Shown: positions 3,107 to 32,765, numbered from the stretch's first letter. The stretch: DNA of 38,689 bases from a bacterium (GCA_002710785.1 PAMC01000011.1:32264-70952); one strand, 5' to 3'. The notes: generated from the letters alone by a model not told the origin. Program-made: numbers and translations.

Positions 3107-5059
3107 CTAGTCGAGGTAGATGGTGGTTTCGTAACCAGAGCTTTGCCCAAAACCGCCCGTGCCCTCAAGTTCCACGTGCTCAGTATCGATGTCATTGAGA
3201 AACGATGACGGAATGTTCACGCGCTGGCTGCCAAAGATGGTACGTAGGTGCGCGTACGTCAGCCAAACTTTTTTCTCGGCTCGGGTAAGCGCCACGTAGA
3301 AGAGTCGACGTTCCTCTTCGTGATCAACGCCACGATCGTCGAGTCGTTCGTGCGGAAAAAGTCCCTCCTCCAAGCCGCTCACAAACACGTACGGAAACTC
3401 GAGCCCCTTCGCCGCGTGTACTGTCATCAGCCGTACCGCGTCACCCCCGTGCTCGCCGAGCTCATCTTGGTCACTTTGCAAGGCCGCGTTCTCTAAGAGT
3501 GCCTCGACCCCTTCCTCCGGGTCGAGTTCGTCAAAGCGCACCGCCAAGCTCACCAGTTCGCGCAGGTTCTCGAGGCGCTCAAGATCTTCCTCGGTCCCGC
3601 TCTTTTTGTAGTGAGTCTCGATGCCCGTACGGCTCATAATGAAGCGCAGCGTCTTTGAGATTGGTTCGATCCGTGCGTGGTCGGTGATGTCCTGCATGAG
3701 CTGGTCAAATCGCGCGACCTTCTCGGCGGTTGCCCCAGCGAGCTCATCGCGCCGCCCCTCAATGAGCTTGAGTGCCGTTACCTTACCAATGCCGCGAGGC
3801 GGCACGTTGACGATCCGCGCGAGGTCGGCGGTGGTGTCGGGGTTGAGTGCCAGGCGCAAAAACGAGAGCACGTCTTTCACCTCTTTGCGTTCAAAGAACT
3901 TGGTACCCAAAACTTGGTACGGCACGTTGAAGTTCAAGAACGCCTCCTCCAAAACCCGCGACTGAAAGTTGGTGCGGAACAGCACTGCAGTATCTGACGG
4001 CCGCGCTCCCTCACTAATGAGCTGCTTGCACTGCAGGGCGATGTACTCCGCTTCGTCGATACCCTGCTGCGCCGCGTAGAGGGTGATTTTCTCCCCGGTC
4101 GCGTTGCTGGTGAAGACGGTCTTCTCGACGCGGTTTTTGTTCTGAGCGATGACCTGGTTGCTGGCGGCGATAATGGTTTGGGTCGAGCGGTAGTTCTCCT
4201 CTAGGAGGATGGTTTTTGCACCAGTAAAATGCCGCTCAAACTGCAAGACGTTGCTGATGTCGGCGCCGCGCCAGCTGTAGATCGACTGGTCGATGTCGCC
4301 CACTACGCAGATATTTGGGTGCTCACCCGCGATTACGCGTGCGATCGCAAACTGTACTTTGTTAGTGTCTTGGTACTCGTCGATGTGGAGGTAGCGGTAC
4401 CGTTCGCGTACGACGTCGCGAATGACTGGGTAGTCGGTGAGGAGCTGCAGTGTCTTTACCAATAGGTCGTCAAAGTCGAGCGCCTTATCGTTGCGCAGAA
4501 TATCGGCGTAGTGCGTCCAGACGGCTGCCGCCACCTGCTCGGGGTACGAGCGGGCATCAGCCGAGAAGTCACTCTGGCTGATCGCGTCTCCCTTCGTCCG
4601 GGAAATAATCGAGAGAATCTTGCGCGGCTCAAACTGCTTTGGGTTGTACCCAGCTTGCTCGAGCGCCGTCTTAATCGCTTTGACGCTATCGCTGCGGTCG
4701 TAGATCACAAAGTGCCGCGGCAAGTTTAGGGTTGCGTGGTGCTCGCGCAGGAGGCGCACACCGAGTGAGTGAAAGGTGGTCACTGTCGGGTAGCTGTCGA
4801 TGATGGCGCGATCGCTCGGCGGAAATTGCTGCAAGAGTGCCATTGCCCGCTCGCGCATCTCCTTTGCCGCCTTGTTCGTAAACGTGACCGCCAAAATGTT
4901 GTGCGGCGCAACACCCTGGTGCACCAGGTGCACAATGCGGTGGGTAATGACACGGGTCTTCCCCGAGCCAGCGCCAGCGAGTACCAAGAGCGGTCCGGTA
5001 GTGTGTAAGACCGCCTCACGCTGCGCGTCGTTTAAGCCTTCAAGGTAGTCGTGCGCCAT
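3107..5059 (-). CDS. uvrD: ATP-dependent DNA helicase, UvrD/PcrA family (650 aa)
   Basis: Walker A AGAGSGKTRV, DEYQDTN (motif II) and overall SF1 UvrD/PcrA architecture. Confidence 0.92.
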   Translation of the reverse strand: MAHDYLEGLNDAQREAVLHTTGPLLVLAGAGSGKTRVITHRIVHLVHQGVAPHNILAVTFTNKAAKEMRERAMALLQQFPPSDRAIIDSYPTVTTFHSLGVRLLREHHATLNLPRHFVIYDRSDSVKAIKTALEQAGYNPKQFEPRKILSIISRTKGDAISQSDFSADARSYPEQVAAAVWTHYADILRNDKALDFDDLLVKTLQLLTDYPVIRDVVRERYRYLHIDEYQDTNKVQFAIARVIAGEHPNICVVGDIDQSIYSWRGADISNVLQFERHFTGAKTILLEENYRSTQTIIAASNQVIAQNKNRVEKTVFTSNATGEKITLYAAQQGIDEAEYIALQCKQLISEGARPSDTAVLFRTNFQSRVLEEAFLNFNVPYQVLGTKFFERKEVKDVLSFLRLALNPDTTADLARIVNVPPRGIGKVTALKLIEGRRDELAGATAEKVARFDQLMQDITDHARIEPISKTLRFIMSRTGIETHYKKSGTEEDLERLENLRELVSLAVRFDELDPEEGVEALLENAALQSDQDELGEHGGDAVRLMTVHAAKGLEFPYVFVSGLEEGLFPHERLDDRGVDHEEERRLFYVALTRAEKKVWLTYAHLRTIFGSQRVNIPSSFLNDIDTEHVELEGTGGFGQSSGYETTIYLD

Positions 5060-6706: not shown

Positions 6707-7315
6707 TTATTGTTTAACTCTATATTGTAGAGCTTCCAGGACATGCTTTGATTTGATGTGGTCTGCATCATCTAAGTCGGCCACCGTCTGTGCGACTTTG
6801 AGCAGGCGGTGGTAGCTGCGGGGTGAGAGGTTTAGTTTTTGGCTGGAGGTTTTAAGGAGCTCCTGGACGTCTGCGGTGAGCTCGAGCGCTTGCTCGATTT
6901 CGCGGGCAGTCAGCTGGCTGTTGGTGCGCACGGTGCGATCGAGCGATTGGTATCGGTGTTGCGCCCGCTCACGTGCAGCTTCAATTTGCTCTCGGGCAGC
7001 CTGAGTTTCTCCATTGCCATGTTCAGTGCGCTTTTCCGTTAAGGTGTCGTAATCGACGTGTGGTACCTCAAGCCACAGGTCGATACGGTCGAGGATAGGG
7101 CCAGAAACCTTCTGTTTGTATGTGTCGGCCATTGCCGCCGCGTAATTAGTTGTCCCGTCCTCAGCGCCACGGTAGGGGTTCATGGCCGCCAGTAAGGCAA
7201 AGTCGGCTGGAAACTCAACGGTGTGTTGTACTCGACTGACCGTTACCACCCGATCTTCAAGTGGTTGACGTAACGCATCGAGGCTACGTCGCTCAAACTC
7301 TGGAAACTCATCCAT
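6707..7315 (-). pseudogene. comM: comM/yifB (Mg-chelatase-like AAA+ competence protein), 3' fragment separated from its 5' part by an insertion
   Basis: Starts MDEFPEFERRSLDALRQPLEDRVVTVSR...AAMNPY, which is the segment that follows HRGVLF(L/M)DE in YifB/ComM proteins. The missing N-terminal half lies at 19366..20337 on the same strand. Confidence 0.85.
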
Positions 7316-7319
7316 AAAC
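7313..7319. repeat. left copy of the 7-bp junction core (att)
   Basis: CATAAAC. Its reverse complement GTTTATG supplies the ATG of the comM 3' fragment. Confidence 0.75.
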
Positions 7320-7573
7320 TATGTCCCACAGTTTTGAATGTGGTCTAATTTGGAATCAGTTACCACTTGTTTACCCTGAACGTACACATTACTCGGTGTA
7401 GAATTTCTCTATGGTTTCAAAATTGAGAGCCTCAGTCATCATAATTATTGTTGGAGTAACCGCTTTTTGGTTAGGAATGCAAGCAGTGCAGTGCCCTGCT
7501 TGCGAATGCACTACACGTTTCGTTAGTGAAACTCTTAAAACCGTACTTTGAGGGACAGACTTTAATGCTATTG

Positions 7574-8239
7574 TCACTCAGTTTTCTCTACCACCTTTAA
7601 GTAGTCCATTATCTTGTATCCAGCTAAGTGCTTGTGTGGGTCAACAAACTTGTACCAAGGTTCCATACGATGCCATGTCTTACCATCCTTCTCCTCTTTA
7701 ACCATCTGAGGTTCAGTCAGTTTCTTGGGTGGAAGAAAATCTTTGTTATCTTTTATCAAATATAAATAGTAGTGTGGTCTACCAGAATCTGCATAAATTA
7801 TTCTAGCGTTTAGTATTCCTTTTTTGACCCATGAACGTAACGTTGGCGTTTTAAGTCCAAACCTGCTTTGCATATCGTAGGGTGAGTATCTGTTTTCGTC
7901 TGTCTTAGCAATTGAGCCTGGGATTTTTCTTTTGTCGATTGCTTTCTGGCAGGTCAGACACTTGATACCCCATTTGTCGTACCAGTTAGTCTCTTCGGTC
8001 GTTGAGTTACCACATATAGCACAGTTGCGTCCATTGCCTGGCAATCTAAAACCCTTTGGTTCATTTTCCAGCCTTCTTTTCCAACCATCCTCCTCCCACT
8101 GGTGTTTTAGTAACAACTCAACAAGACCAACAAGTCTATATCCAGCGTCAGAGGCCTCATCCCACGAAACCTCTTTTTCGCCTTTTTCTTCCATTAAGTC
8201 CTTAAATTCTTGTATGTGTTTATCTGATAGTTTCGTCAT
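7574..8239 (-). CDS. zinc-ribbon plus HTH (MerR/excisionase-like) protein, 221 aa
   Basis: CAICGN...CLTC four-Cys ribbon, then a helix-turn-helix-like segment (FGLKTPTLRSWVKKGIL). The family is not recognised. Confidence 0.6.
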   Translation of the reverse strand: MTKLSDKHIQEFKDLMEEKGEKEVSWDEASDAGYRLVGLVELLLKHQWEEDGWKRRLENEPKGFRLPGNGRNCAICGNSTTEETNWYDKWGIKCLTCQKAIDKRKIPGSIAKTDENRYSPYDMQSRFGLKTPTLRSWVKKGILNARIIYADSGRPHYYLYLIKDNKDFLPPKKLTEPQMVKEEKDGKTWHRMEPWYKFVDPHKHLAGYKIMDYLKVVEKTE

Positions 8240-8296
8240 AGTGTTTGCTTAACGAGTAAACAAACCCTACGCTGTTAGTTGCAGTATACGCTCATT

Positions 8297-8332
8297 ATTG
8301 TGGGACACAATTTACAATTTCAGTCCCACAAT
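8297..8332. promoter_or_regulatory. operator-like inverted repeat upstream of 7574..8239
   Basis: ATTGTGGGAC, 16-nt spacer, GTCCCACAAT (perfect 10-bp arms). The spacer contains tandem ACAATTT ACAATTT with a third copy at 8328. On the minus strand it overlaps a possible TTGTGT-16-TATACT promoter. Confidence 0.45.
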
Positions 8333-9151
8333 TTATGTCTCAACTTCTTCTAAAAGATTGATCGAAACATGATGGTTAAAAACATCATCTATCTCAATCA
8401 GATAAACATGACCACGGTGCAGACTTGCTTTTAGTTCTGGTGATACTGTCGTTTTGATGATTTTACCTTCGTGCTCACCGGAACAAGCCTCAAAACAGAC
8501 TTCAAATTCTTTTTTCAAAAGCTCCCATGCGTATACTCGCATTTCAGCAATGTCTCCAGCTTTAACATCAGAATATATGACCTCCTCTCCATCATATAGA
8601 CGCCTAATAACACGACGGTTTTTTGCCCGGTACTCTTTTTTATTATAGTTTCTTGATTTTTTACCAACCTTAGATAATTTATCGGCTACTTTGTTTTCTT
8701 TACGGCGTTTAAAATCAACACTAACTTGCCCTCCTACAGCTTTTGCTAGTTTAAGGCGTGTTTTATCAATTTTATCCAACAGGTCAGCATCTTTGATATC
8801 TTTGCCTTCGTAGTTTTTCCATTTGTTTTTTCTCCAGCCCTGAATTTTATATGGATTGATTAGCTCTCCATCTGTCACACTGTGTCTGTCGGTGTATATT
8901 TCAACACCTGAAGCTTGTCTTACGATGTCGGGGTTTGCTTTTGCGTATTCAAGCAGACCTTCCATTGCATGAATAATGCTAATCATTTCTAGTCGGTGTA
9001 TACCTCTACCGTCACTTCTATAAAAGTACTGAATTGGTTCAGCATCGATACTGTCAGGAAAAGTTATTTCATAACCACCACCCCCAGTCTGTTGAGGATC
9101 GTAGTCCATTGCTCCGTCACAGTGTATTTGTATCGCATGTGGGTTGTTCAT
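8333..9151 (-). CDS. RNase HI-like protein with an unassigned C-terminal extension of about 105 aa (272 aa)
   Basis: RNase HI catalytic pattern read in the translation: HCDGA (D12), RLEMISI (E55), IYTDRHS (D88), ENKVADKLSK (D157). There is also a basic-protrusion-like GWRKNKWKNYEGKDIKDADL, comparable to E. coli RnhA WKKRGWKT..KPVKNVDLW. Residues from about 170 to 272 have no recognised motif. Confidence 0.7.
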   Translation of the reverse strand: MNNPHAIQIHCDGAMDYDPQQTGGGGYEITFPDSIDAEPIQYFYRSDGRGIHRLEMISIIHAMEGLLEYAKANPDIVRQASGVEIYTDRHSVTDGELINPYKIQGWRKNKWKNYEGKDIKDADLLDKIDKTRLKLAKAVGGQVSVDFKRRKENKVADKLSKVGKKSRNYNKKEYRAKNRRVIRRLYDGEEVIYSDVKAGDIAEMRVYAWELLKKEFEVCFEACSGEHEGKIIKTTVSPELKASLHRGHVYLIEIDDVFNHHVSINLLEEVET

Positions 9152-9209
9152 TTAACTACAATACTTCGATGAAAACACAAAGCAAGTTAACTTTTTATTG
9201 CAATCTGGA

Positions 9210-9233
9210 GGACAACTATTAGGAAAGTTGTCC
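9210..9233. promoter_or_regulatory. operator-like inverted repeat in the divergent control region
   Basis: GGACAACT, 8-nt spacer, AGTTGTCC (perfect) in the 143-bp gap between the divergent genes 8333..9151 and 9295..11094. Confidence 0.4.
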
Positions 9234-9294
9234 CACTATATGTATAGCTAGACATGACAATATTATTATTGTACGTTTCTAGTACGACAGAATC

Positions 9295-11094
9295 ATGGCG
9301 CAGGAAAATCAATTACCAATATATAGGGTTAACAAAGAACACGAAAAACTGCATCAGGCTACGACTTTTGACCAGGTTGTTAACTTAGTGATGCGAAATG
9401 AGCAAGAAAGATTAGAAAGAACTCCTATATCAAAACGTCAAGAAGGAGATGCCTATGTAGAAAAGACCTTGAACGATGACTTAGAATTAAGTGGATATTC
9501 AGTACGCGTATTTCATAAAGCGAGAGTAAACCCAAATCCATGGAATGGTTTCTTTCAGGACGTTGTACAAGATTTGCGTCAGCTTAAAAATGAAAGCCAT
9601 GACTTCATTGTTTTTATTTCAGATGAGCAGTCCGAAAATCAAAACATATACTGTTTTACTGGTGGCTCAGCATTTCATGTGATTTCTGATTTTGCTGACG
9701 AAGATTTTCCAATACAACTTCTGGTTAGATTTATTGACCCAGAAAAAATAAAAACTGCACGAAGCAGAATGTTGACTGGTTCATTTTATGCTAGGAGCAA
9801 TTTTTTTAGAGGTGCACACAGCATATCAGTAGCAGATGCATTTGGTGCGATATGGAAAGACGTGACGGCAACATTAAAAGATGAAGTACGTGCGGACCCA
9901 GATTTTTCATATTTATTTGAGAGTAAACGCGATTTAAACTGTGAAGCAAAGTCTTCTTTTAAACTAAAGAAAAGGGTTGGATTTGAACAAGGTCTTACAC
10001 TCATTAGCAAGCTTGAAACAATTCTTTCCAGAGAATTGACAGCAGATGAGTCAATGGTTCTGGACTTGTTTGAAACTTTTCAAATCATAAAATCAAAACC
10101 AAAAAAAGACGAAGTTAAAGAACGTATTTTGTCCTTAGCTCTATCCTATATAAATGATGAGACTAGCGAATTTGATTTTGATGTTTGCAATGTTGAATAT
10201 GAAAAATACTTTGAGGCTGAAAAATATGTAGTTGCATACAAACAGCATCGTTTTGAGTTCACGTCACATCCTAGCGGTAAAGACATCTTGGACGAACTAA
10301 AAAATTTGGAAGAAAGTCCAACTTCAACTCAAGAATTAGCAAACATTAAAATCAATACAGAAAGTAGTTTGGGTGAATGGCATACAACAAAGGGAACTTT
10401 ATATGACCATCTACATGGTGAAGTTGAATTAAATAATAACGAAAAGTATTTCTTAATTGATAAGAACTTGTACAAGGCCAAAGCTGATTTTCTTGAAAAA
10501 ATGAACCTCAATTTTATTAGTCGATTAAATACGGATGACTTGTTGTTGCACACAGATAACTCTTCCCAATTTATAGATTGGGGGAATATATCTGAAGGAG
10601 AATACAATGAGCTGTACCTACAACAACCTTCATTTGTTGTTGCAGACAGAGTGACTCTAAAAGGCATTGAAGTTTTTGATCTATTGTATTTTGGTCAAGA
10701 CAATAAAATCTATATAGTACAAGTTAAAAATGGACTAGGTTCCTCTACCAGAGATGCTTGCTCACAAATTAGGAACTCAGCAGATGTGATTGAAAACGCG
10801 ATTAATGATGGTCAGACAGAAAAACTTAGAGAGCTATATAGATTGCTTTCACGTACAACAAAGGTTTCATACCATGCAGATCTGCAAAGAATCATGAGAA
10901 CCTTCACTGAAGATGAATTTGTAAACTTGTTTAGAAACAACGAAAGGATTTACCTACTTCTATTTAAGTACCAAGCAAACAACGCTGATTTATCTAGGCT
11001 CGCTTCAAATATTGCCAAGTTTGAAATTTTAAGCACAGCTGATTACATGAGAATGCATAATGCTGATTTCAAAATGCTAAATATTGCCAGCTAA
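9295..11094 (+). CDS. 599-aa protein of unknown function with a PD-(D/E)xK-like C-terminal motif; possibly TIGR04141/DUF6119-like
   Basis: C-terminal EVFDLLYFGQDNKIYIVQVKNGLGSSTRDACSQIRNSADVIENA fits a D-x15-QxK nuclease-like core. The N-terminal IYCFTGGSAFHVISDF..DFPIQLL pattern and overall length match my recollection of the sporadically distributed TIGR04141 family. This is not verified by an HMM. Confidence 0.65.
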   Translation: MAQENQLPIYRVNKEHEKLHQATTFDQVVNLVMRNEQERLERTPISKRQEGDAYVEKTLNDDLELSGYSVRVFHKARVNPNPWNGFFQDVVQDLRQLKNESHDFIVFISDEQSENQNIYCFTGGSAFHVISDFADEDFPIQLLVRFIDPEKIKTARSRMLTGSFYARSNFFRGAHSISVADAFGAIWKDVTATLKDEVRADPDFSYLFESKRDLNCEAKSSFKLKKRVGFEQGLTLISKLETILSRELTADESMVLDLFETFQIIKSKPKKDEVKERILSLALSYINDETSEFDFDVCNVEYEKYFEAEKYVVAYKQHRFEFTSHPSGKDILDELKNLEESPTSTQELANIKINTESSLGEWHTTKGTLYDHLHGEVELNNNEKYFLIDKNLYKAKADFLEKMNLNFISRLNTDDLLLHTDNSSQFIDWGNISEGEYNELYLQQPSFVVADRVTLKGIEVFDLLYFGQDNKIYIVQVKNGLGSSTRDACSQIRNSADVIENAINDGQTEKLRELYRLLSRTTKVSYHADLQRIMRTFTEDEFVNLFRNNERIYLLLFKYQANNADLSRLASNIAKFEILSTADYMRMHNADFKMLNIAS

Positions 11095-12855
11095 GGCATT
11101 ACCTCGTTGCATCAAAGGATTGGATTTAAGGATTTCTTTCCTACGGTCAGATTCGCTTTTGATTTTTACATGCAATACCAGTCGCATATGCTTGCCTTCA
11201 GTTACGCTGGCAGGTGCTGATGTTGGCACTTTCGTGTTTAGTGGAAACTTAAATGCTACTTCTGCATACCCTTTCTTGTGGTAAAGAGTGATTTTTTCGA
11301 CAAAGAGACGTAGGATGTATTGTTGCTCTTCATAAGATAGGTTATCGAGTTTTGTCTGTAGTTTGCTGTACAAAGATTGAATAATTTTGTCTCGGTCTTT
11401 CTGCTCAGTCTTTTTCAGCAACATCTGTGAAAGCTTTTGTTTTTGTATAGTTAAATCCTTTTCATCTTTACATACTTGCTTCATCCGACTGTTATAATCG
11501 TCCTTATCCATCTGTGCTTCAAGATACACCTCCTGAATACGTTGCTTTTTGGTTTTAAGCGTATCAAATTGCTTGTCTAGTTGTACCAGCTCCTTTTTTA
11601 CTTTAGCTTCGTCACTAGTTTTGAATGTATATTCTTCCAGTTGGGGTATCACATTTTTAGGGTCGCTCAGTATTGCCAGAAGTGTGTCCCATATAGGCAT
11701 CAACCTACTTTCAGCACACTGTCCTTCAGGGTTACCGCTATCGTAATCAGTACCAATTCTCTCTAACGCTGGAACGTAAACATGGTAATACTTTCCAAGA
11801 TACGGTGTGACTTTGTCTTTCTTAGGAGACTGATAACCACTTTGTAGTTTTTTGCCAGAGTATCCTGAGTGAAGTAACCCAGCAAAGAGGTAAACCCGCT
11901 TCTCATTTCGTTTCTGGAATCGGCGATTATCTTGTAACTGTTGAATAGCTTTTTTAAAAAGTTCTTGAGAAACAATTTCAGGAACGGTGATTAAGATATG
12001 GTCTTCTTGTGGACGCTGGTGCTGTTCATCAACTACTGCGTTTAAGAACTGAAACGGTCGTTTGTACTTGTTGTAATAGAACGCGCCAGTATAAACCTCA
12101 TTAACTAAGATTCGGTTGATAGTTCGTTTGTACCACTTTCCCCCGACACGATTTTTACCCTTAGCGTTTTTATGCTTCGGGGTAGGTAAGTTTTGCTCAA
12201 TAGCACGTCTAGTTATTTCACGTAGAGAACATTTTTCGTAGACCAGCCATTCGTAGAATTTCTGAACAACCTCAGCTTCTGCTTCATGTTTGACCAGTTT
12301 TTTTGTCTCACTGTCTACTCGGTAACCATACGGCGGTACACCAGTTACCCATTTTCCTTCACGAGCACACTTGAGTCTTCCGTTCATTAGTCTCTCCGTT
12401 ATTAGTCTTCGTTCGTGTTGTGCAAGAACGGCCTTAATGTGTGTCATCAATTCGCCGTTTACAGTCCTAGTCTCGACCTCACGCTCATGAATCGAAAATA
12501 GCTCGATACCCATTTTAGTGAAGTCTTCAACAGTTTTAACACTGTTCAGAAAATTGCGAGAAAGTCTATCTAGAGCATATATAATGACGATATCAAACTC
12601 TTTGAGTTTTGCTGCTTCGAAAAGAGCACTTAGTGCTGGACGCTGTTCAATTGGCAAGTTTCCTGAGAATCCGCCATCTATATAGACATGCTCACTGTTC
12701 AGCATGTAGTTGTTGGATAGACAGCATTTTCTCAATGCCTCCTCTTGTGTTTCTAGGCTCGTACCATTATCTGCTTGGTCTTCGGTTGAAACCCGAAGAT
12801 AAATAGCAGCACGTTTTTGCCTAATGTTGGTAAATGTTTCATTGGTAATGTCCAT
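11077..12855 (-). CDS. large serine recombinase (integrase), 592 aa
   Basis: Resolvase catalytic domain (AAIYLRVSTEDQ with the nucleophile Ser, and YALDRLSRN), recombinase domain (PPYGYRVD), and a long coiled-coil (KKELVQLDKQFDTLKTKKQRIQEVYL...). The expected CxxC zinc-ribbon ligands are replaced (GLLHSGYSGKKL). Confidence 0.9.
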   Translation of the reverse strand: MDITNETFTNIRQKRAAIYLRVSTEDQADNGTSLETQEEALRKCCLSNNYMLNSEHVYIDGGFSGNLPIEQRPALSALFEAAKLKEFDIVIIYALDRLSRNFLNSVKTVEDFTKMGIELFSIHEREVETRTVNGELMTHIKAVLAQHERRLITERLMNGRLKCAREGKWVTGVPPYGYRVDSETKKLVKHEAEAEVVQKFYEWLVYEKCSLREITRRAIEQNLPTPKHKNAKGKNRVGGKWYKRTINRILVNEVYTGAFYYNKYKRPFQFLNAVVDEQHQRPQEDHILITVPEIVSQELFKKAIQQLQDNRRFQKRNEKRVYLFAGLLHSGYSGKKLQSGYQSPKKDKVTPYLGKYYHVYVPALERIGTDYDSGNPEGQCAESRLMPIWDTLLAILSDPKNVIPQLEEYTFKTSDEAKVKKELVQLDKQFDTLKTKKQRIQEVYLEAQMDKDDYNSRMKQVCKDEKDLTIQKQKLSQMLLKKTEQKDRDKIIQSLYSKLQTKLDNLSYEEQQYILRLFVEKITLYHKKGYAEVAFKFPLNTKVPTSAPASVTEGKHMRLVLHVKIKSESDRRKEILKSNPLMQRGNALAGNI

Positions 12856-12994
12856 ATATTTGAACTGGATTTGATTCGATTTCCAGTGTCTTTACAGAAA
12901 TGAGTTCTCGCACTAACTCATCCCTAGAAAGAGACTTGATTCTCTGAATTTCATCTGCTATTAAGTAATCTTTAATGTCATCAATATGGTTCAT
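12839..12994 (-). CDS. possible 51-aa ORF overlapping the recombinase start (candidate accessory factor)
   Basis: My own translation: MNHIDDIKDYLIADEIQRIKSLSRDELVRELISVKTLEIESNPVQIYGHYQ*. It is below the track size cutoff and its TGA lies 14 nt inside the recombinase ORF. No SD and no recognised motif. Confidence 0.25.
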   Translation of the reverse strand: MNHIDDIKDYLIADEIQRIKSLSRDELVRELISVKTLEIESNPVQIYGHYQ

Positions 12995-13104
12995 ATAACT
13001 GGGGAGAGTATCCTAGGCCATGAAATATGGCTCAAAATAACGGTCCTCCAGTTATATAATTCCATATATTGACAACTGTGTAAATACGTTGTGTTATGAG
13101 ACTG

Positions 13105-14883
13105 TTAACTACCACTGGCTAAAGTAAAGGTGTGTTCTCTGCCTTTCTTACCTTTAACAATCAGCTTGTCAGTAGCTAAGTCGTCTAGTGCGTCAGTGAT
13201 GTTACGACCACCGACATCTTCTTCAGTTTGAACTTCGTGGATGATTTCCTTGCGGGTAAGGGTGCCTTGATTGAGAAGCTCAAGGATAGCTTTTCGAGCT
13301 AGTCCCTTTTTAGTCAATCTGCCAGAGCCCATACCTGAAGATTCGAGTAGGATTGGGTCATCGATTTCGTCTTGCCGAATAGTCACCTGGAATGAATCAA
13401 CATTTTTTCCCCTGCGTGACTTCACATGCTCGACATTAAGTGATTTTGTAGTTCCAGTATCATCAGTATGGTCAATTGTGATGTGCGAATCGAGCCGACC
13501 TGAGTATGCTGATGAACCTCGAAGGCTGTGTCCTGAACTGCCATTTGCACCCTTACGATGGTGATGAATAAACAGTACCGCGGCTCCCGCTTCGTTTAGT
13601 AGCTGTAACTGCTCCATGACCGCTTGTGCTTCTTCGGCACTGTTTTCGACACCTGAGTGAACTGCTACAAATGGGTCTATGACCACTAAGCCGATTGACT
13701 TGTCACGAATGGTTTTTGTGATGAGTTCGATGTCGTCTTCGTCATCTACTTTGAAACCATTTTGTGAGTAAAAGAACACAGGAGAGTCTTCGGGGTAAGA
13801 GAGTAGTTTCATCCTACGTCGCATTTCCCAGATACCACTCTCTTCGTCAATCACAAGCACATTTGCTTGTTTAGTTTTGAAGAGGTCAAGGAATGCTTCA
13901 CCAGTTGCAATGCTATTTGCCATACTGAGCATGAACCATGACTTACCACAACCAGGATGACCAGAGAGTGCTGTAATACCTTTTTCAGGTACTAGTCCAG
14001 AGACTAGGAACTGAGGTTTCTCTGACTCTGGCATATTAAGTACCGTAGATACGGTCAGTAGTTCACGTTTCTTTTTGTGAATGGCTTTTTCAGGCTGCTT
14101 TTTATTTGCCAGTGAGGAGTAAATGCTACTCACTTCACTTGATGGCAGGGGTGGATGGTTTTTTGCTTTGTTCCATGCGTGAAGCATGGGGTAGACAACC
14201 TCATTCCAGTTCTTTTTAGGGATGTGATGTAGCAACTTTCCTGTAATGGAAACCATCTTAGTGTGGCGCTCTCCTTGTGTAGAGCCCTGCATGATTGCTT
14301 CCCAGTCAGTTGGTTCAGATTCATTACCTTTTACATACTCGATGAATTCATCTGGCAGAGGCGCTAGCTTGCTAACGTCAAGTGGTTCTACCCATTCGTA
14401 CTCGTTACCATTTGGATGAACGCTTGGTGGAAGAGTAGTGTAAGTTTTATCTGCCCTCAGTTCACCAATGATACCGTGTTTCCTTAGGTCGACAGTTGGC
14501 AAGTTGTCCTTGTCATAGTCATCAGGAACCCGGAAGTAATAATGCCAACCTCCACCCCCGCTCCTAGCCCTGACTGTTTCTGGTAAGTTGAACCTCGCTG
14601 GTTCTTCACCCTCTTCGAGGTCGAGTACGCAGACATCCTCATCAAGGCCGGTTATTAGCCCGACACCAGTTAGCGTATTGCTAAAGGTGTCGAACCAGTC
14701 CCGGATATCTTGCTCAGAAGCAGGTTTCTCTCTCAGACTAGACCACTTGACGAGTGGTTCTTTACCATTCAATGGTACAAGTTTCCAACCGTCAGCTTCG
14801 TAATCCAATGCTGATTCCAGCAACCTATCATGCTTATTGGACATAATCTTTGGCGAAGTAGCCATTATGTAAGTAGTACTCAA
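13105..14883 (-). CDS. bifunctional primase-polymerase (PrimPol) / RepA-like AAA helicase with C-terminal wHTH
   Basis: The N-terminal Prim-Pol pattern is GKEPLVKWSSL...VCVLDLEEG...RSGGGGWHYYF...LPPSVHPNGNEYEW. Walker A is GHPGCGKSW and Walker B is VLVIDEESG. The true start may be ATG 14844 (MSNKHD), which overlaps the upstream stop. Confidence 0.85.
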   Translation of the reverse strand: MSTTYIMATSPKIMSNKHDRLLESALDYEADGWKLVPLNGKEPLVKWSSLREKPASEQDIRDWFDTFSNTLTGVGLITGLDEDVCVLDLEEGEEPARFNLPETVRARSGGGGWHYYFRVPDDYDKDNLPTVDLRKHGIIGELRADKTYTTLPPSVHPNGNEYEWVEPLDVSKLAPLPDEFIEYVKGNESEPTDWEAIMQGSTQGERHTKMVSITGKLLHHIPKKNWNEVVYPMLHAWNKAKNHPPLPSSEVSSIYSSLANKKQPEKAIHKKKRELLTVSTVLNMPESEKPQFLVSGLVPEKGITALSGHPGCGKSWFMLSMANSIATGEAFLDLFKTKQANVLVIDEESGIWEMRRRMKLLSYPEDSPVFFYSQNGFKVDDEDDIELITKTIRDKSIGLVVIDPFVAVHSGVENSAEEAQAVMEQLQLLNEAGAAVLFIHHHRKGANGSSGHSLRGSSAYSGRLDSHITIDHTDDTGTTKSLNVEHVKSRRGKNVDSFQVTIRQDEIDDPILLESSGMGSGRLTKKGLARKAILELLNQGTLTRKEIIHEVQTEEDVGGRNITDALDDLATDKLIVKGKKGREHTFTLASGS

Positions 14884-15265
14884 TGACTTTGTCCATCACT
14901 TTAGACAGGTCAATATTCACACACTTCGGACGGTCGTTGTTGTTTCCATCTTTGTAGTGTGCCCAGAATGTAGCGACTGGATAGCTTCGACCATTCGGGA
15001 ATGCGTAATGTACTGTGAAGTCTTGCTGCTTAAGGTGTCGATGTGAGAATGCTTCACGGTAGGGGCTGTAGTACGTTTCATCATCGACTTTGCTAGGGAA
15101 ATGGATGTGACCTTTCTCCACGAGATATGTCATGGAATTGATGAGTTCTTCGTCATAGAGTTCATCTTCGTCATTGTCCATGAACGCTGCTAATTGCAGG
15201 TCTTCTTCTTCGTTAATGTAGTGAGGAATTGTTTCTCCTGCTTCGTTAGTGGTTTTTGTCGTCAT
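14834..15265 (-). CDS. hypothetical protein (143 aa), acidic N-terminus
   Basis: Track ORF in an overlapping same-strand gene chain with the PrimPol gene. No motif recognised. Confidence 0.5.
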   Translation of the reverse strand: MTTKTTNEAGETIPHYINEEEDLQLAAFMDNDEDELYDEELINSMTYLVEKGHIHFPSKVDDETYYSPYREAFSHRHLKQQDFTVHYAFPNGRSYPVATFWAHYKDGNNNDRPKCVNIDLSKVMDKVIEYYLHNGYFAKDYVQ

Positions 15266-15482
15266 AGATTGTTGTGTTAAGTTTCATAATTTCGTCATGC
15301 AAGTACTTCTTAAACAGCGTGTGTAACGCAACATCGACCTCGCTTTCGCGTCGTTGCTCAACTTGCTGTGTTTCTTTCTCTTGCATGCTGGCATTAAACC
15401 GCAAACAAAATTGACTGATAAGAACTAACGCATAGCTACTTACAACAAAAAAAGCCCTAAAAATAAGGTTATTTTTGTACAC
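15246..15482 (-). CDS. small hypothetical protein (78 aa from GTG, or 46 aa from ATG 15386)
   Basis: Track ORF that overlaps the next gene by 20 nt. The start is ambiguous. Confidence 0.3.
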   Translation of the reverse strand: MYKNNLIFRAFFVVSSYALVLISQFCLRFNASMQEKETQQVEQRRESEVDVALHTLFKKYLHDEIMKLNTTIYDDKNH

Positions 15483-15531
15483 TATAATTTAGTTAAATTA
15501 GTTACTCACAAGCTACTGATTAGCCAGTCTA

Positions 15532-16338
15532 CTAGTCGAGCATTGGGTTGTTAAAAATGAGTCTTGATGGTTTTGCACGGCGCACCCACTCGAACATCAC
15601 TGCACCAGACGGAAGCGTCGTATCCATGTGTTTGCGGAAAGATAAATTGACCGAGTTTTCGATATTCTTTTTAAGTCTGTCTCTCGGAATTTCCTTAAAT
15701 TTCAATTTTGTTCGCAACGTCTTATCAATTTCTGCCACCGTTGCGTCACCACTACCGTTTGTTGCGAGATATATCGCAACAAGAATTTTGAAGTACTTTG
15801 TGTCACGGCTCATAGTTAATGACACCTCTTTTCGTCCCTTGCCTTGAAAAAACTGGTACGAATCATTCATGTACAGGTATCGTCCGTTGTCGTTGGTCAG
15901 TTTCTTAATGACTTCAGAATCGTTGTGTAGAAGATTCTTTTCACGCATTTTGCGCAGAGCACTTATTTTAAGCACCTTTACTACCAAGAACGGTTCGAAC
16001 TCCAGTTCGAGATAAGGGTCTTTTAACCTAATAAATCGGAATGGTACATCGTCTGAATCAGTGAAACGTTTATACCAGTAGTCACTATATGAGTAGAATT
16101 TCAGAATCCCATTTTTCTCAAAGTAGTTCCTGAATGACTCAAACCTTTTGTTTGTCTCATGTGTGACATTTTCATCTGGTAAAAAACGATTGATTAGCAG
16201 TTTGTCTTTACCAGCGATAGTGTCTCGATTCCATCCTGACTGTTCAGCACGGGTATATTCGTTTTCTATATCTGATAGGTAACGAATCAGGATCTCATCA
16301 AACTCAAAGAGAGGTTTATTATGCAAAGTGGCAACCAT
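15532..16338 (-). CDS. hypothetical protein (268 aa), possible wHTH regulator or replication initiator
   Basis: Track ORF. The C-terminal YFKILVAIYLATNGSGDATVAEIDKTL looks like a winged helix. Its start codon sits inside a 39-bp palindrome. Confidence 0.5.
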   Translation of the reverse strand: MVATLHNKPLFEFDEILIRYLSDIENEYTRAEQSGWNRDTIAGKDKLLINRFLPDENVTHETNKRFESFRNYFEKNGILKFYSYSDYWYKRFTDSDDVPFRFIRLKDPYLELEFEPFLVVKVLKISALRKMREKNLLHNDSEVIKKLTNDNGRYLYMNDSYQFFQGKGRKEVSLTMSRDTKYFKILVAIYLATNGSGDATVAEIDKTLRTKLKFKEIPRDRLKKNIENSVNLSFRKHMDTTLPSGAVMFEWVRRAKPSRLIFNNPMLD

Positions 16339-16360
16339 ATATATAGGTTGCCACTTTGCA
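16322..16360. promoter_or_regulatory. 15-bp perfect inverted repeat around a 9-bp ATATATATA centre, covering the start codon of 15532..16338
   Basis: TGCAAAGTGGCAACC at 16322-16336 and GGTTGCCACTTTGCA at 16346-16360, read directly. Confidence 0.6.
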
Positions 16361-16472
16361 CCTTATTTGTAAATTGCCAGAATTACCTATGATTTTATCG
16401 AGGTTGGTATATTACCTCGTATTTCGGCCACTTCATTTAATAGTGGACGTTTTCTAGACAACTAAACGTATC

Positions 16473-17057
16473 CTAGTTTCCGCAAAAGGTACGAGGAGTT
16501 AAACTCACATCGTAATATCCACCATCGTAGGAACAAGTAACCCCAGGTGCAAACTTGTTGCTCGGATATTCACAATACTCAATCGCACCATTGCTTACAC
16601 CTGCTGGTGGGTTAGTTGGGTTTCCTTTCAAGAATGGTTTCAGTCCAACTAACTCAAGTGCTTTGTCACTGTTACGAACTGCACCAGCTTTAGTACAGCT
16701 ACCAAGACTTTTAATTTGCACTTCTACATAGTCTGATATGACACCATCTTTACTCTCAACAAGTAGTTCGTACTCGTCATTTTCAAACACTAAATTACCT
16801 ACACCGTTCAGTGGGGTATCAAATTGCTCTGATAAATTCGACATTGGAACGTCATACAACGTTGCTATTCTTACCAACGGCTCTACAGCAGGCAGGACAT
16901 TTTCCACTTCATCAGTAGTGACACTTTTCTGAGTTGTTGGAGCAGTAACTTCGTCTTCACTAAACACTCCCCATATGAATACTCCTGCTCCAGCTAAAAT
17001 TATTAAACCAACAACTAACTGTGGTATCGAAACTTCCTCGTCTTTTTTGTACTCCAT
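16473..17057 (-). CDS. membrane-anchored extracytoplasmic protein (194 aa, 4 Cys)
   Basis: From ATG 17057: MEYKKDEEVSIPQLVVGLIILAGAGVFIWGVF (TM anchor), then a soluble Cys-containing domain. The track extension to 17159 runs through a structured GC-rich leader and is rejected. Confidence 0.55.
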   Translation of the reverse strand: MEYKKDEEVSIPQLVVGLIILAGAGVFIWGVFSEDEVTAPTTQKSVTTDEVENVLPAVEPLVRIATLYDVPMSNLSEQFDTPLNGVGNLVFENDEYELLVESKDGVISDYVEVQIKSLGSCTKAGAVRNSDKALELVGLKPFLKGNPTNPPAGVSNGAIEYCEYPSNKFAPGVTCSYDGGYYDVSLTPRTFCGN

Positions 17058-17225
17058 AAAAATTGTGATGACTTGTAAGTCGCGGAGTAACAAAAAACTC
17101 CCCGCGAGGTGGTGGCTCGGCCACCCACTGTCAGTTTCCCAACAGGGCCTACAAAGCATCCCTCACGGAGAGGTTTTTACTTTGTAGGACTTGCGGCCAT
17201 ACCTCTGTCTCACAACAAAGGGTTA
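17058..17225 (-). ncRNA. GC-rich structured leader or small RNA candidate
   Basis: Clearly more GC-rich than the surrounding island. Perfect 9-bp stem CCTACAAAG/CTTTGTAGG (17149-17157 / 17181-17189). AGAGGT/ACCTCT is interleaved with that stem in a pseudoknot or alternative-pairing topology. Further hairpins: GGTGGC-TCG-GCCACC and CGCGGAG...CTCCCCGCG. A possible minus-strand promoter, TTTACT-17-TACTAT, lies just upstream. Confidence 0.3.
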
Positions 17226-17422
17226 GGCCATTTCATATTCAGTTGTAACTACATAGTATTTCTTTAGCAGGCAAAAGTAAACTGAGTATAAATTATTAGA
17301 ATTTACTACGGATATTTTCTTGATTGCCACATAGTGAGTGTCTCTCGTATAACTCCAGGGTCTCTCGTGGACCACTCTGAATAAGGTCTTGCCATTTCTG
17401 TAAATTAATACACTATGTAGAG

Positions 17423-18247
17423 ATGAGTATTCCATATATTGAACGAAATCCTACAAATGACGAGGTGCTGCAGATGCAGCTTGCTTTTAGTACTTTTTGT
17501 GACGGTTCTGGTCAAGAAAGAGATGGTAACGGTATGACTCGAGCAGGATGGAGGGATATCGAGAGGATTTTTGCTGAGATTTTAGGAGGTAAGGCCAACG
17601 AAAATAAACATATTTTCGATGTTCTTGTCCCAGATTCAGATAATGAAGATATCATTTACGGAATATCATTAAAATCAAAGCAAATATCTAGGGCATCTGC
17701 AATTGAAGACTTAGAGGAGGAAGGAAGGGTGCATATGGAAATAGCAAATTCTCCTGCTAAATTTTGGGCAGAACTGACAAAGGCTGGTATTTCAGAAAGT
17801 GACTTTAGAAGTAAAAATAAAGCATCAGAAATTGGTCAGATTTTACTTAAAACAATTGACTCGTGGCACCTGGAAGCAAAGACGGCTTTCGAAACACAAA
17901 ATCCTGACAAAAGGTTAGATTTAAATAAAAGTGTTTACATTACCGTATCTTATAGCCCTTTTAGAGATGGAATTGGTCGCTTATATCAAGCCCATTCTTT
18001 CCCACTAACCTTTCCAGAAAATATCAAATGGTCATATATTAGTGACAGATGTTTACGTGGAATGGATCCAACGGATGAAAACAAAACACTAATTGATTGG
18101 TATGGTTTATCAGGTGGGCAGTTCAAATATTATCCCAAGGCAAATACGGCAAATTATAAATCTGCAAGATTCTCCCTACTTGAACCTGAAATAATTTCGA
18201 TTGTTGAAAAAGCGAAGACTTACTGGCCTGAGAAATGGCCTGAATAA
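17423..18247 (+). CDS. putative type II restriction endonuclease (274 aa)
   Basis: Convergent with the C5-methyltransferase, with one base between the two stop codons. IFDVLVPD...YGISLKSK...IEDLEEE fits a PD...SxK...E variant of the PD-(D/E)xK core. The assignment rests on context and a weak motif only. Confidence 0.5.
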   Translation: MSIPYIERNPTNDEVLQMQLAFSTFCDGSGQERDGNGMTRAGWRDIERIFAEILGGKANENKHIFDVLVPDSDNEDIIYGISLKSKQISRASAIEDLEEEGRVHMEIANSPAKFWAELTKAGISESDFRSKNKASEIGQILLKTIDSWHLEAKTAFETQNPDKRLDLNKSVYITVSYSPFRDGIGRLYQAHSFPLTFPENIKWSYISDRCLRGMDPTDENKTLIDWYGLSGGQFKYYPKANTANYKSARFSLLEPEIISIVEKAKTYWPEKWPE

Positions 18248-18248
18248 A

Positions 18249-19346
18249 TTATGGTAATTTATTTTGTCTGATGTTTTTTGCGGTTACTAAAGGTGTTTTA
18301 GAGTTAATGCCATAGGTGTTAATGAGGTGAGAAAACATAACTTGTGCAAGCATGGGTGGTACCGCATTTCCAATTTGTGTAAATTTTTGTTCGGTATTGC
18401 CCTCAAAATGAAAATTGTCTGGAAAGGTCTGAATTCTAGCCGCCTCTCTCCACGATAGCCGTCGTGGCTTTTCAAGAATCTGTCTAGTGGAATCTTTTTC
18501 AAGATGTTCGTATTCATCACTGAAATCCCATCTTTGCTTCCAACCATTTTCCAGATCAGACCAAGTCAGTTTCATTTTTGGGCAAGCTGGATGCAATGTG
18601 ATGTGCCTCCAGTTAGCAACTACGGTGTAAGCTGGCTTGTCCCAGTCTGCTTTTCTGTTTCTTGACATGAAATACCATGAAAAATTACCTTCTTCGTTAG
18701 GTCTTTCGTAGAATTCTCCCTCAGGCCAGAGTGGTAGATCTTTTATCACTTCTCCATGTGATGTGTATGGTAATAAATTAGAGGTTTTTTTTGTAACCTT
18801 CCCATGGGTTTCTTCTGGAAAAACAAATTCGAAATCTAAATCTTTTCGAACCCCCACTAAAAAGATGCGTTTTCTCGATTGCGGAACACCATAATCCTGT
18901 GCATTAACTACTTTGTATGTGACGTTATAGCCAGACTTTCCACTTTTACCAAAAACTTTTAGCTGTTCTGATAGAAAGCTGCCATTTTTTATTTTTGAAA
19001 GCCCTGATACATTCTCTGCAATAAAAAAAAGGGGGTTTACTTGGTTCAACACTCGTGCAAATTGTAAGTATAAGAGTGTCCTAGGATCTTTTTTAGGATC
19101 TCTTTTTCCTCCCATTGAAAAGGATTGGCAGGGATAACCGCCAAAAACAATTTCAGCTTCTGGAAATGAATCGACATTATTTATATCATCAATAATTACC
19201 TCAGTGCCAGGAAAGTTTTTTGATAAAGCTTTGCCAATAACAGGATCTATTTCATTAGCATATACTATATCTACACCACTTTTGTGCGCTGCAATATCCA
19301 TTCCGCCAACACCTGAAAAAAGACTGATTCCTCTAAGTTTTTGCAT
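18249..19346 (-). CDS. DNA (cytosine-5)-methyltransferase
   Basis: Motif I FSGVGG, motif IV GGYPCQSFS, ENV, QSRKRIFLVG, RLSWREAARIQTFPD and GNAVPP, in canonical order. Confidence 0.92.
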   Translation of the reverse strand: MQKLRGISLFSGVGGMDIAAHKSGVDIVYANEIDPVIGKALSKNFPGTEVIIDDINNVDSFPEAEIVFGGYPCQSFSMGGKRDPKKDPRTLLYLQFARVLNQVNPLFFIAENVSGLSKIKNGSFLSEQLKVFGKSGKSGYNVTYKVVNAQDYGVPQSRKRIFLVGVRKDLDFEFVFPEETHGKVTKKTSNLLPYTSHGEVIKDLPLWPEGEFYERPNEEGNFSWYFMSRNRKADWDKPAYTVVANWRHITLHPACPKMKLTWSDLENGWKQRWDFSDEYEHLEKDSTRQILEKPRRLSWREAARIQTFPDNFHFEGNTEQKFTQIGNAVPPMLAQVMFSHLINTYGINSKTPLVTAKNIRQNKLP

Positions 19347-19365
19347 TGAGCTATTATATTACAGT

Positions 19366-20337
19366 TTATAGACAGATAAAAATTAGTCCCTTTTGAGGGA
19401 CTGTTTTCATAAACAGTACCCCGCGGTGAGCCAGCGTAACTTCGCCTGGCTTCGGGTACGTGCCACCACCCACCAAACTGGTGTGGCTTGCGGTGTGGTG
19501 CGGCGAACGAAACGGTGGTGTACGGGTAATGCACTCGTGGTCGATGCGTTCACCAGCAATGGAGTGAATACCAAGTACTTCTAACACGGCGTCAGTATCG
19601 AGTGGTGGCAAAATTGTTTGAAAGGCGCGCGCCAGCATCGTTTTGCCAGTGCCGGGCGGTCCAACCATAAGCACATTGTGCCCACCTGCTGCGGCAATAA
19701 TGAGACCCCGCTTCGCACTCTCCTGCCCGCGAATATCATCGAGATGCACCGCACCGTCATTCCAGCTGGAGGCTATTTCTGTAGCGGGAGCGGGAGTGAT
19801 GGTGACTGGTTGGGGGTGGTTTTGGTCGACGTGGGCGACAACTGCCGCTAAGTCTCTTGCGGGTGTTACCGTGATACCCGATACGAGCGCAGCCTCGACG
19901 GCATTGGCCTCGGGCACGATCACTTCGTCGACACCATGTTCCACCAGCGCTTGTACCGCTGGTAGTACTCCACGTACGGGTCGTATACTGCCATCGAGCC
20001 CTAGTTCGCCGATGTAGGCAGTCCCACCACTGCGCGGCGTAATGTCGCCGTTGGCCGTGAGGTACGCCATGGCAATTGGCAGGTCGTAGAGCGGCCCCTC
20101 TTTCTTGAGATCGGCTGGTGCGAGACTGATGACAATTTTTTGGTTGCTCTGTTTTGGCGACTGAAATCCCGAGTTTTTTATGGCAGCACTGACACGGTCT
20201 TTTGCTTCCTCGACCGCTTTGCCGGCCAAGCCAACAATGGTGAAGGCGTGTAGCCCTCGGCTTAAGTCGGCTTCAATGGTGACAACGCTGCCGGTTGGCA
20301 CCGTTGGTTGTGCGGTTATGGTGCGAGCCACGCTCAT
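19366..20337 (-). pseudogene. comM: comM/yifB 5' fragment (Lon-like N-domain plus Walker A) ending in a 13-aa element-derived tail
   Basis: MSVARTITAQP...LAPADLKKEGPLYDLPIA...MVGPPGTGKTMLA...AHRGVLFM, then KTVPQKGLIFICL* read from island DNA. The break coincides with CATAAAC at 19408-19414. Confidence 0.85.
19408..19414. repeat. right copy of the 7-bp junction core (att)
   Basis: CATAAAC, identical to 7313-7319. It is preceded by the hairpin AGTCCC-TTTTGA-GGGACT (19385-19402). Confidence 0.75.
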
Positions 20338-26784: not shown

Positions 26785-27108
26785 TTACGCAGTCTCTTCC
26801 TCAGTTGCCTCTGGAGCAGCTTCCTCCGCTGCTTCTTCGGCTGGAGCTTCCTCGGTAGCTGGTGCTTCTGCTACTTCTTCAGCAGCTGGAGCTGGCGCGT
26901 CGCTTTTAGCTACGTCTACGGCGGCTGGACCTTTTGGACCATCCTCTACCTCAAAGGTAACCGCGTCACCCTCGCGCATATCGTCGAAGATAACGTCACC
27001 AATGACTGAACGAGCGTGGAAGAAAAGATCCTTTTCACCACCCTCAGCTGGAGTAATAAAACCGAAGCCCTTGTCTTCAATCATTTTTGCAATCGTACCG
27101 GTTGCCAT
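26785..27108 (-). CDS. cold-shock domain protein with a 40-aa Ala/Glu-rich tail
   Basis: The translation shows RNP1-like KGFGFI and RNP2-like DLFFH within MATGTIAKMIEDKGFGFITPAEGGEKDLFFHARSV. The tail is APAPAAEEVAEAPATEEAPAEEAAEEAAPEATEEETA. Confidence 0.88.
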   Translation of the reverse strand: MATGTIAKMIEDKGFGFITPAEGGEKDLFFHARSVIGDVIFDDMREGDAVTFEVEDGPKGPAAVDVAKSDAPAPAAEEVAEAPATEEAPAEEAAEEAAPEATEEETA

Positions 27109-27324
27109 AAATGTGTTGTGTTAGGAATGGACGACGTACGTCGTACATACATATGTGTGTAATCCAAAACCTTCTTCACCTGACCTTACTTCTTTGTGGT
27201 GTTGCCGAGCGGGCAGACACCGAAATATTCCAAGAGGAGAACTGCTTTGACGGCAGTAGTAAAGCACGTTTGGGTAAAAATACAAGGTTTGCACGCGCGT
27301 TCATTTTGCGTACAGTACACCCAT

Positions 27325-30151: not shown

Positions 30152-30171
30152 ATTTGTTGTATATAAAAAGC

Positions 30172-30200
30172 GACCCCGCCGCGCAGTGCATGGTGGGGTC
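30172..30200. terminator. hairpin between the cassette-1 membrane gene and a minus-strand ORF
   Basis: GACCCCGCC ... GGTGGGGTC (9 bp: one G-U on plus-strand RNA, one A-C mismatch on minus-strand RNA). An A-run precedes it on the plus strand, so a U-run follows it on the minus strand. Confidence 0.45.
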
Positions 30201-30230
30201 TCTGGTTAGGGGTGGGTATTTCCCCCTTTC

Positions 30231-31527: not shown

Positions 31528-31579
31528 TATTCAGTTTAGTCTAGAAACAGAGAAATTTATTTTGATACAGTAAGGGTGT

Positions 31580-32710: not shown

Positions 32711-32734
32711 ATTCTCAAGCTACGGGTTTAGATC

Positions 32735-32756
32735 TTGGTATCATGCATGATACCAA
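32735..32756. repeat. 22-nt perfect palindrome sharing a 16-nt core with 20407-20422
   Basis: TTGGTATCATGCATGATACCAA between convergent genes. The core GTATCATGCATGATAC is identical to the one in the 20395-20434 palindrome. Confidence 0.7.
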
Positions 32757-32765
32757 AATACAAAA

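Follow-up and report, generated by a model that had tools for sequence, protein, structure and literature searches.

A comM gene of a candidate phyla radiation bacterium split by a large serine recombinase element that probably carries attachment sites for several spellings of its target codon

Why is the comM (yifB) gene of a bacterium of the candidate phyla radiation (CPR, Patescibacteria) found in two pieces, both still open, on either side of 12,095 bp of AT-rich DNA, and how did that DNA come to lie there? The question is raised by a stretch of 38,689 nucleotides (GCA_002710785.1 PAMC01000011.1:32264-70952), hereafter the window, in which positions are counted from the first letter. An original prediction held that an integrative element had split comM precisely, between two CATAAAC repeats, that its own large serine recombinase (LSR) had inserted it, and that excision would restore the gene. 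Comparison with about 45 related loci (15 genome loci and about 30 metagenome loci) leads us to a fuller account, which we consider very likely to be correct: an LSR inserted a non-viral element that carries several attachment sites (attP) in parallel, and the site that was used is the one which matches codon 309 of the comM gene of the host.

The damage to comM is best understood by rejoining its halves. Placed by the rejoined frame, by Pfam and by protein matches, the N-terminal part (residues 1-308, with the Lon/ChlI domain and Walker A) lies at 19415..20337 on the minus strand. The C-terminal part (residues 309-511, from the D/E of Walker B onward, with Mg_chelatase_C), placed by the rejoined frame and Pfam, lies at 6707..7315 on the same strand. 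Both open reading frames (ORFs) are present as they had been described. The first reaches 19366, so that the ORF 19366..20337 ends in AHRGVLFM plus 13 residues read from element DNA, and the second, 6707..7315, begins with MDEFPEFERRSLDALRQPLED, its ATG being codon 309 itself. It is the Walker B motif that is interrupted, between VLF and MDEFPEF. Joined in silico, 6707..7319 and 19415..20337 make 1536 nt in frame, coding for a protein of 511 aa. On this protein the Pfam Mg_chelatase match (2-205/207) runs unbroken over the joint, with ChlI and Mg_chelatase_C on either side, and its closest database counterparts, intact ComM/YifB proteins of 511 aa, are 83-85% identical to it over 100% of the length. 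That nothing was lost at the joint, as had been claimed, is borne out by this colinear frame. The search among relatives that had been proposed as a check yielded two intact comM genes, that is, an empty attB, in loci L001 and L002. With both of them the rejoined gene makes a gapless nucleotide alignment. Gene order there is that of the window (SurA_N, NYN, PNPase, an unknown gene, comM, LysM-M23, UvrD, KsgA): relatives with the same neighbours carry one intact comM, not the same two ORFs parted by unrelated DNA. The empty site of L002, GTACTGTTTATGGATGAGTTTCC, is the same as the reconstructed attB, and the string predicted from the window for a restored attB is GGGGTACTGTTTATGGATGAGTTTCC. Excision would thus restore comM exactly, to judge by the intact gene that joining the halves produces. 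The idea that the repeat supplies an ATG which keeps the halves readable has to be toned down: both ORFs are open indeed, but the ATG is merely codon 309 of the host, and because Leu or Val stands there in other hosts, the open 3' frame is a by-product.

What separates the halves is an integrated element at 7320..19414, delimited by its composition and its junctions. Its GC content is 39.5%, against 56% and 51% in the flanks, a step that agrees with the abrupt change of composition reported at both breaks. On its minus strand, at 11077..12855, it codes for an LSR of 592 aa, recognised by Pfam, catalytic residues, profile and fold. The N-terminal catalytic domain matches PF00239 (Resolvase, E 1.9e-33), and PF07508 (Recombinase) is matched with E 2.4e-19; the catalytic residues R21, S23, D96, R97 and R100 do not vary among 40 members of the family. 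The profile of the family aligns to the SPbeta integrase over residues 69-525 (E 1e-29) and to the C-terminal domain of A118 over residues 290-527. An AlphaFold2 model (pLDDT 80), with long helices at 416-503, finds its best Foldseek matches in the full-length SPbeta, Bxb1 and PhiC31 integrases (E 2e-20 to 2e-13). The zinc ribbon PF13408 is not matched, and the usual four cysteines are not evident. The clade of this enzyme comprises some 75 protein clusters with an identity of at least 34%, in CPR/Patescibacteria assemblies; LSRs of the next tier do not exceed 32%. Domains, catalytic residues, fold, comM-specific relatives and the 2-bp core to which we now turn all sustain the view that the element was inserted by its own LSR.

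Where exactly did the exchange take place? CATAAAC is present three times in the window, and two of the copies, at 7313-7319 and 19408-19414, sit exactly at the breaks. Since 5.1 copies are expected by chance, the count alone is not significant; it is the placement at both breaks that matters. In this the original prediction was right, but the repeat is not the mechanistic unit, the exchange being confined to its central 2 bp. Looking for the longest shared substring gave chance repeats, and the core of each junction was set by anchoring on comM codons and on the GGGAC/GTCCC arms. Read in the orientation of comM, attL (B-P', 19394..19425) is CGCGGGGT ACTGTTT AT GAAAACA GTCCCTCA, with its central AT at 19409-19410, and attR (P-B', 7299..7330) is TGTGGGAC ATAGTTT AT GGATGAG TTTCCAGA, with its central AT at 7314-7315. 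The general plan of attR is TTTGTGGGAC, 7 nt, codon 309 and GAY GAR; that of attL is TTY, codon 309, 6 nt and GTCCCACAAA. The codons around 309 are nearly invariant, TTY before and GAY GAR after. Rejoining the ends of the element gives, in the window, the attP junction TGTGGGACATAGTTTATGAAAACAGTCCCTCA. The arms of the site form an almost perfect inverted repeat around a spacer of 16 nt, TGTGGGAC-N16-GTCCCACA, or more precisely TGTGGGAC-N7-XY-N7-GTCCCACA, and the centre of the site falls on bases 1 and 2 of ComM codon 309, which encodes the final hydrophobic residue of hhhhDE in Walker B. The bases shared by attL and attR number 7 in the window and go down to exactly 2 in L006 (TT) and in L014 and L016 (both CT). 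Because the central dinucleotide is the sole position common to all loci, the seven bases of CATAAAC are microhomology of attP and attB around a 2-bp crossover. On the evidence of the sequence, this crossover is the AT found at 7314-7315 and 19409-19410, a signature of serine recombinases.

The choice of this codon is a habit of the family. Every relative of the LSR with readable flanks is located in comM, at the same codon. Of the genome loci whose LSR is 39-83% identical, 15 out of 15 have comM broken at residues ~306-316 (they are labelled Saccharibacteria, Kaiserbacteria, Nomurabacteria, Paceibacterota or Parcubacteria), and the gene is interrupted alike in about 30 further loci from metagenomes; the loci that lack a comM match are mostly short contigs. 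In the 120 closest intact ComM proteins residue 309 is M, V, L, A or C, Ala and Cys being rare. Two variants of this behaviour deserve a mention of their own. L010 (13769/4485) is divergent, with an LSR 39% identical to that of the window and oriented opposite to comM, att arms CCGAC-N10-GTCGG and a common core TAG; its restored gene implies AGT (Ser) as codon 309, unusual at a hydrophobic Walker B position. A second, distant clade of LSRs, 27-30% identical to the enzyme of the window, splits comM at residues ~220-225, after GHN(L/V)L and just before Walker A, GPPGxGKT (L020 5098/11554, labelled Gammaproteobacteria; L164 2279; L165 4537; L167 5600). Since one clade breaks the gene beside Walker A and the other at Walker B, the two together target sites beside both nucleotide-binding motifs of comM.

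The attP that was used is not the only one, a feature absent from the original prediction. With up to 3 mismatches allowed, the attP consensus has 5 matches in the window, where 0.20 are expected, all of them at 7299-17214, inside the element. One is attR. The other four (at 7549, 8299, 9206 and 17183) are intact, and each occupies a gap or a junction between genes. In comM orientation, the spare site at 7549..7580 has TT at its centre (AA on the plus strand) and is the counterpart of the attP used by L006 (28/32). That at 8299..8330 has GT (AC on the plus strand), and both its arms are perfect to TGTGGGAC-N16-GTCCCACA; that at 9206..9237 has CT (AG on the plus strand). An attP-like site at 17183..17214 has TG (CA on the plus strand), which would fit a Cys codon 309. 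Thus AT was the site used in a host with ATG as its codon, and TT, GT, CT and TG are still intact.

Such arrays recur throughout the family: 26 intact attP sites were counted in 895 kb of family loci, against 0 in 998 kb of unrelated control loci. Each element has 1-4 further intact sites, which makes arrays of 2-5 in all. The central dinucleotides of the spare sites are CT, GT, TT and AT, rarely TG or GC. T is the second central base in 34 of 39 unique internal sites, the first base being C in 17 of the 39, T in 12, A in 5 and G in 5. NT begins every hydrophobic codon, and the residues met at ComM position 309 (M, V, L, A or C) explain the infrequent sites with TG (Cys) and GC (Ala) as well. 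The dinucleotide of the used attP is always the start of codon 309 in the host. Used and unused dinucleotides are mutually distinct in 26 of 26 elements; 200,000 shuffles gave 14.4 such elements on average and 22 at most. A scan for promoters and terminators around attR and the spare sites gave no signal above chance.

Further evidence comes from following individual sites between elements. The CT site of the window shares an identical spacer, central dinucleotide and right arm with the sites at 13089 in L006 and at 6262 in L103. Across seven elements this unused site stands as a conserved island of 32-36 bp amid flanks that cannot be aligned, which argues for selection on a site that is not in use. 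Intact AT sites in L004 and L006 are close to the reconstructed attP of the window; the match of the former (28/32) is an independent confirmation of the junction that had been predicted. Finally, the intact CT site of L017 is the used attP of L016 (32/32). These two elements, integrated in different hosts through TT and CT respectively, have LSRs with 91% nucleotide identity and are circularly permuted exactly as predicted.

Orientation has something to say as well. In serine integrases the central dinucleotide alone sets the orientation of the insertion, and a palindromic centre loses directionality. AT is palindromic, so that integration through AT can go either way. Inverted insertions were found only through AT, in 3 of 8 cases (L003, L107 and L115) as against 0 of 24 for the other dinucleotides (Fisher p=0.011), and all TT, CT and GT insertions have the LSR in the direction of comM. 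If true, this restriction of inversion to AT would be a natural example of the rule of the palindromic centre.

How would such an element work? The products of an LSR are ligated only when central dinucleotides match; it follows that the attP which matches the resident comM allele is the one used. We propose that the LSR would recombine attP with attB by a 2-bp exchange at codon 309, whichever site of the array fits the resident allele being engaged, so that one and the same element could enter hosts that differ at the target codon. In the host of the window (ATG) the AT site would have served, with TT, GT, CT and TG kept in reserve. Mismatched centres would also keep the sites of an array from recombining among themselves. 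Excision would need a directionality factor, and comM would then be restored exactly. Probably, to judge by the sites compared above, the array is a built-in orthogonal set of attP sites, one for each spelling of the variable Walker B codon, which lets a single recombinase widen its host range. As to the benefit of the target, loss of the ComM helicase plausibly shields the element from curing by transformation, a benefit also put forward for other insertions in comM.

Might the internal sites rather be scars, left by serial or tandem insertions in a composite island comparable to stacked SCC elements or to an integrated multimer? They do cut the element of the window into gene-sized modules, some of which are present or absent between relatives (the restriction-modification module between the AT and TG sites of the window is missing from L004), and the LSR has weak NCBIfam matches to the CcrB/CcrC recombinases of SCC. 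These matches, however, fall far under the curated cut-offs (113 vs 900 bits), and serial insertion by an LSR would leave one same dinucleotide at the boundaries, whereas the dinucleotides always differ (26/26 elements); for these two reasons the SCC-type (Ccr) composite island was rejected. Nor is there space for remnants in the compact relatives L012, L013, L134, L140 and L141, where the sites follow right after the LSR, 50-100 bp apart. Scars would not be expected to stand as conserved islands amid diverged flanks, or to have orthologues that serve as actual attP in other hosts, and we find this explanation improbable. A cassette array of the integron type was also considered and rejected: the only recombinase is of the serine type, and the inverted repeats are of the LSR type, with dinucleotides all different. 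One may also suppose that the palindromes are regulatory binding sites, operators of the recombinase, or else generic repeats, their likeness to attP being incidental. LSRs bind inverted repeats of this kind, and all four spare sites are in short gaps or at gene junctions. Yet operators would leave without explanation why the first central base varies while the second is a constant T, why dinucleotides are distinct within every element, why they match the codons of ComM position 309, and why orthologous sites form split attL and attR in other hosts. Taken as the sole function this seems to us highly improbable, while a regulatory role of the spare sites alongside integration is conceivable.

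The exactness of the split, with both halves of comM still open, invites yet another interpretation, that of a reversible genetic switch which excises on cue, restores comM and integrates again, in the manner of comK and phage phi10403S in Listeria. Switches of this type, driven by LSRs, do exist in Listeria, Bacillus and Anabaena. Here, however, structural genes of a phage are missing from the element, no directionality factor could be recognised, and neither an excised form nor a restored attB was found; the ATG of the 3' half, as we have seen, belongs to a host codon which is Leu or Val elsewhere. The cargo of the family, mostly restriction-modification and defence, is a better fit to a selfish or defence island than to a switch regulated by the host, and we give the latter little credence.

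Integration through a codon-matched array of attP sites remains the account that we prefer, and there are several points that weigh against it. Longer contigs with an LSR of the family and no comM within reach (L118, L120, L132, L142 and L150) leave room for targets other than comM. Sites with TG or GC are scarce, with 1-3 mismatches in their arms, and a few weak internal sites have dinucleotides outside the pattern (GG in L105, TC in L142). That unused sites can function is predicted from comparing sequences. The loci being phylogenetically related, the shuffle and Fisher statistics overstate their independence. No recombination directionality factor is recognisable among the small ORFs of the element (such factors share no common family). 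No free circular form was met, no fetched contig having terminal repeats; L140 and L142, with intact sites but without comM, are too short or ambiguous to be called episomes. Nor did the same population yield an excised attB. Finally, the part played by ComM in CPR bacteria is a putative one.

The rest of the element tells what kind of entity this is. On the minus strand, at 13105..14883, lies a replicase (primase-helicase) with Prim-Pol, PriCT_1 and AAA_25 domains (Pfam, PHROGs). A type II restriction endonuclease (17423..18247, plus strand; PADLOC REase_II, E 3.9e-34) is accompanied by its partner, a C5 cytosine DNA methyltransferase (18249..19346, minus strand), identified by family matches. 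Family matches also point to an RNase H-like domain in a protein of 272 aa, encoded between the CT and GT spare sites (8333..9151, minus strand). Divergent from its gene, with the CT spare site between the two, is that of a 599-aa protein (9295..11094, plus strand); as the family is rich in defence cargo, this may be a defence gene not described so far. A protein of 221 aa, encoded at 7574..8239 on the minus strand between the spare sites with GT and TT, has homologues at the equivalent place in L003 and L004. Another, of 228 aa (16473..17159, minus strand), is common to L004, L005 and L006. The 599-, 268-, 228-, 221- and 143-aa ORFs of the element have no match in PADLOC, PHROGs, NCBIfam or Pfam. 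The 228-aa protein is 95% identical to that of L005 (at ~6197), whereas the LSRs of the two elements are only 52% identical, which suggests a recent exchange of modules between elements.

In the window element, searches with Pfam and PHROGs for capsid, portal, terminase, tail and lysis genes came back empty, no gene for conjugation was found, and 134 ORFs of 16 related elements comprise no phage or transfer gene. Scanning IMG/VR with the LSR returned distant LSRs only, at 28% identity or less, and this gives no support for a viral origin. A temperate phage was ruled out on these grounds: no structural genes, no close relatives in IMG/VR. In the 16 related elements the cargo consists mostly of methyltransferases, restriction enzymes, Shedu, and replicases of the Rep_O or Prim-Pol type. 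Restriction and defence functions in the absence of phage or transfer genes make the family resemble small integrative, plasmid-like restriction-modification and defence islands. Judged by its gene content, what sits in the comM of this CPR bacterium is a non-viral, replication-competent element.

Some further observations may be recorded here. In one subclade (L016 10402-12154; L017 10013-11777; P0167-P0191) the LSR is split in two frames by a +1 shift at residues ~361-372, giving ORFs of ~362 and ~230 aa; many independent database proteins of ~360 aa end at this place too. A programmed frameshift, a two-part enzyme or decay could be the cause. Many relatives have, directly upstream of the LSR, an ORF of 140-160 aa with a resolvase catalytic domain only (at ~10001-10450 in L009, L016, L127, L128, L134, L141 and L150), which the element of the window lacks. 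Beside comM, the UvrD of L002 (4831-7884, 1017 aa) contains an intein, with Hint/Intein_splicing domains; the UvrD of the window (3107-5059, 650 aa) and that of L001 are free of it. To the right of the conserved block the GC content of the window is 42-50% at 27000-33000 and 37.6% at 38001-38500. This low-GC stretch, which may be further acquired DNA, holds an LCAT-like lipase/acyltransferase of 852 aa (27196-29754) and an unassigned ORF of 376 aa (31580-32710). The right part of the window also has a tRNA-Arg at 37435 and a tRNA-Gly at 37653.

Insertion of LSR elements in comM is in itself already known and common, and the present case is a clean example from CPR bacteria. Of the predicted site-specific LSRs, 12.4% target homologues of Mg-chelatase/ComM, and competence genes are over-represented among the genes hit (Durrant et al., 2022, PMC10083194). 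The elements of that survey are alike in that an LSR inserts site-specifically inside the comM/yifB coding sequence; they are assigned one attP each, where the family of the window has arrays of 2-5 and lives in CPR hosts, and the clade of its LSR, at most 32% identical to the next tier, is set apart from theirs (PMC10083194). In Wolbachia, the sr1WO prophages of phage WO owe to an LSR a split of the magnesium chelatase gene, the halves of which flank the element (PMC9203015). Phage WO is a full tailed prophage (PMC9203015), for which no multi-attP array is known to have been described, and the element of the window is devoid of virion genes.

Mobile elements in comM comprise AbaR/Tn6022 in Acinetobacter and integrase islands in Aggregatibacter, Mannheimia, Francisella and Pseudomonas (PMC4774983, PMC12378983). 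These Gram-negative insertions share with ours the target gene and the proposed benefit of blocking curing by transformation (PMC4774983, PMC12378983). That comM is a known hot spot for insertion thus holds good, but the analogy with AbaR drawn in the original prediction extends to the target gene only: AbaR is a Tn7-like transposon, the other Gram-negative islands depend on a different family of integrases, and both insertion sites and host phyla differ from those of the window. Pfam and further family searches found no transposase domain in the window, and att sites sharing a 2-bp core make up the junctions, so that an AbaR or Tn7-like transposon was rejected. The likeness to A118 and phi10403S in the comK of Listeria is that an LSR splits a competence gene precisely; there, however, the element is a complete phage with regulated excision, whereas here phage genes and evidence of excision are both missing. 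The closest parallel to the array is man-made. Sets of att sites engineered for PhiC31 or Bxb1 let one integrase act on pairs that differ in the central 2 bp and recombine only when matched (Colloms et al., 2014, PMC3936721). The set described here is, by contrast with these (PMC3936721), apparently natural, resides on one element, and is matched to variation of a host codon.

In the open-access literature we found neither comM insertions in CPR bacteria nor natural multi-attP arrays, and an array of this kind, with spare sites matched to a codon, has apparently not been described before. To our knowledge, orthogonal sets of central dinucleotides are known only as engineered tools, and the current view of serine integrases gives each element a single attP. 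Strict matching of dinucleotides has been treated as a limit on the range of targets, exploited only in engineering. If our account is true, nature has its own counterpart of the engineered orthogonal att sets, and with it an unrecognised way for site-specific elements to widen their host range. The array would illustrate how an element can follow a protein-coding target as it drifts, and would supply ready-made compatible site variants for one compact integrase. CPR bacteria, which are thought to depend on DNA uptake, may bear the loss of a recombination helicase better than that of the uptake machinery. In these bacteria, in which few mobile elements have been defined from end to end, the present findings point to disruption of comM as a strategy that restriction-modification and defence islands use widely.

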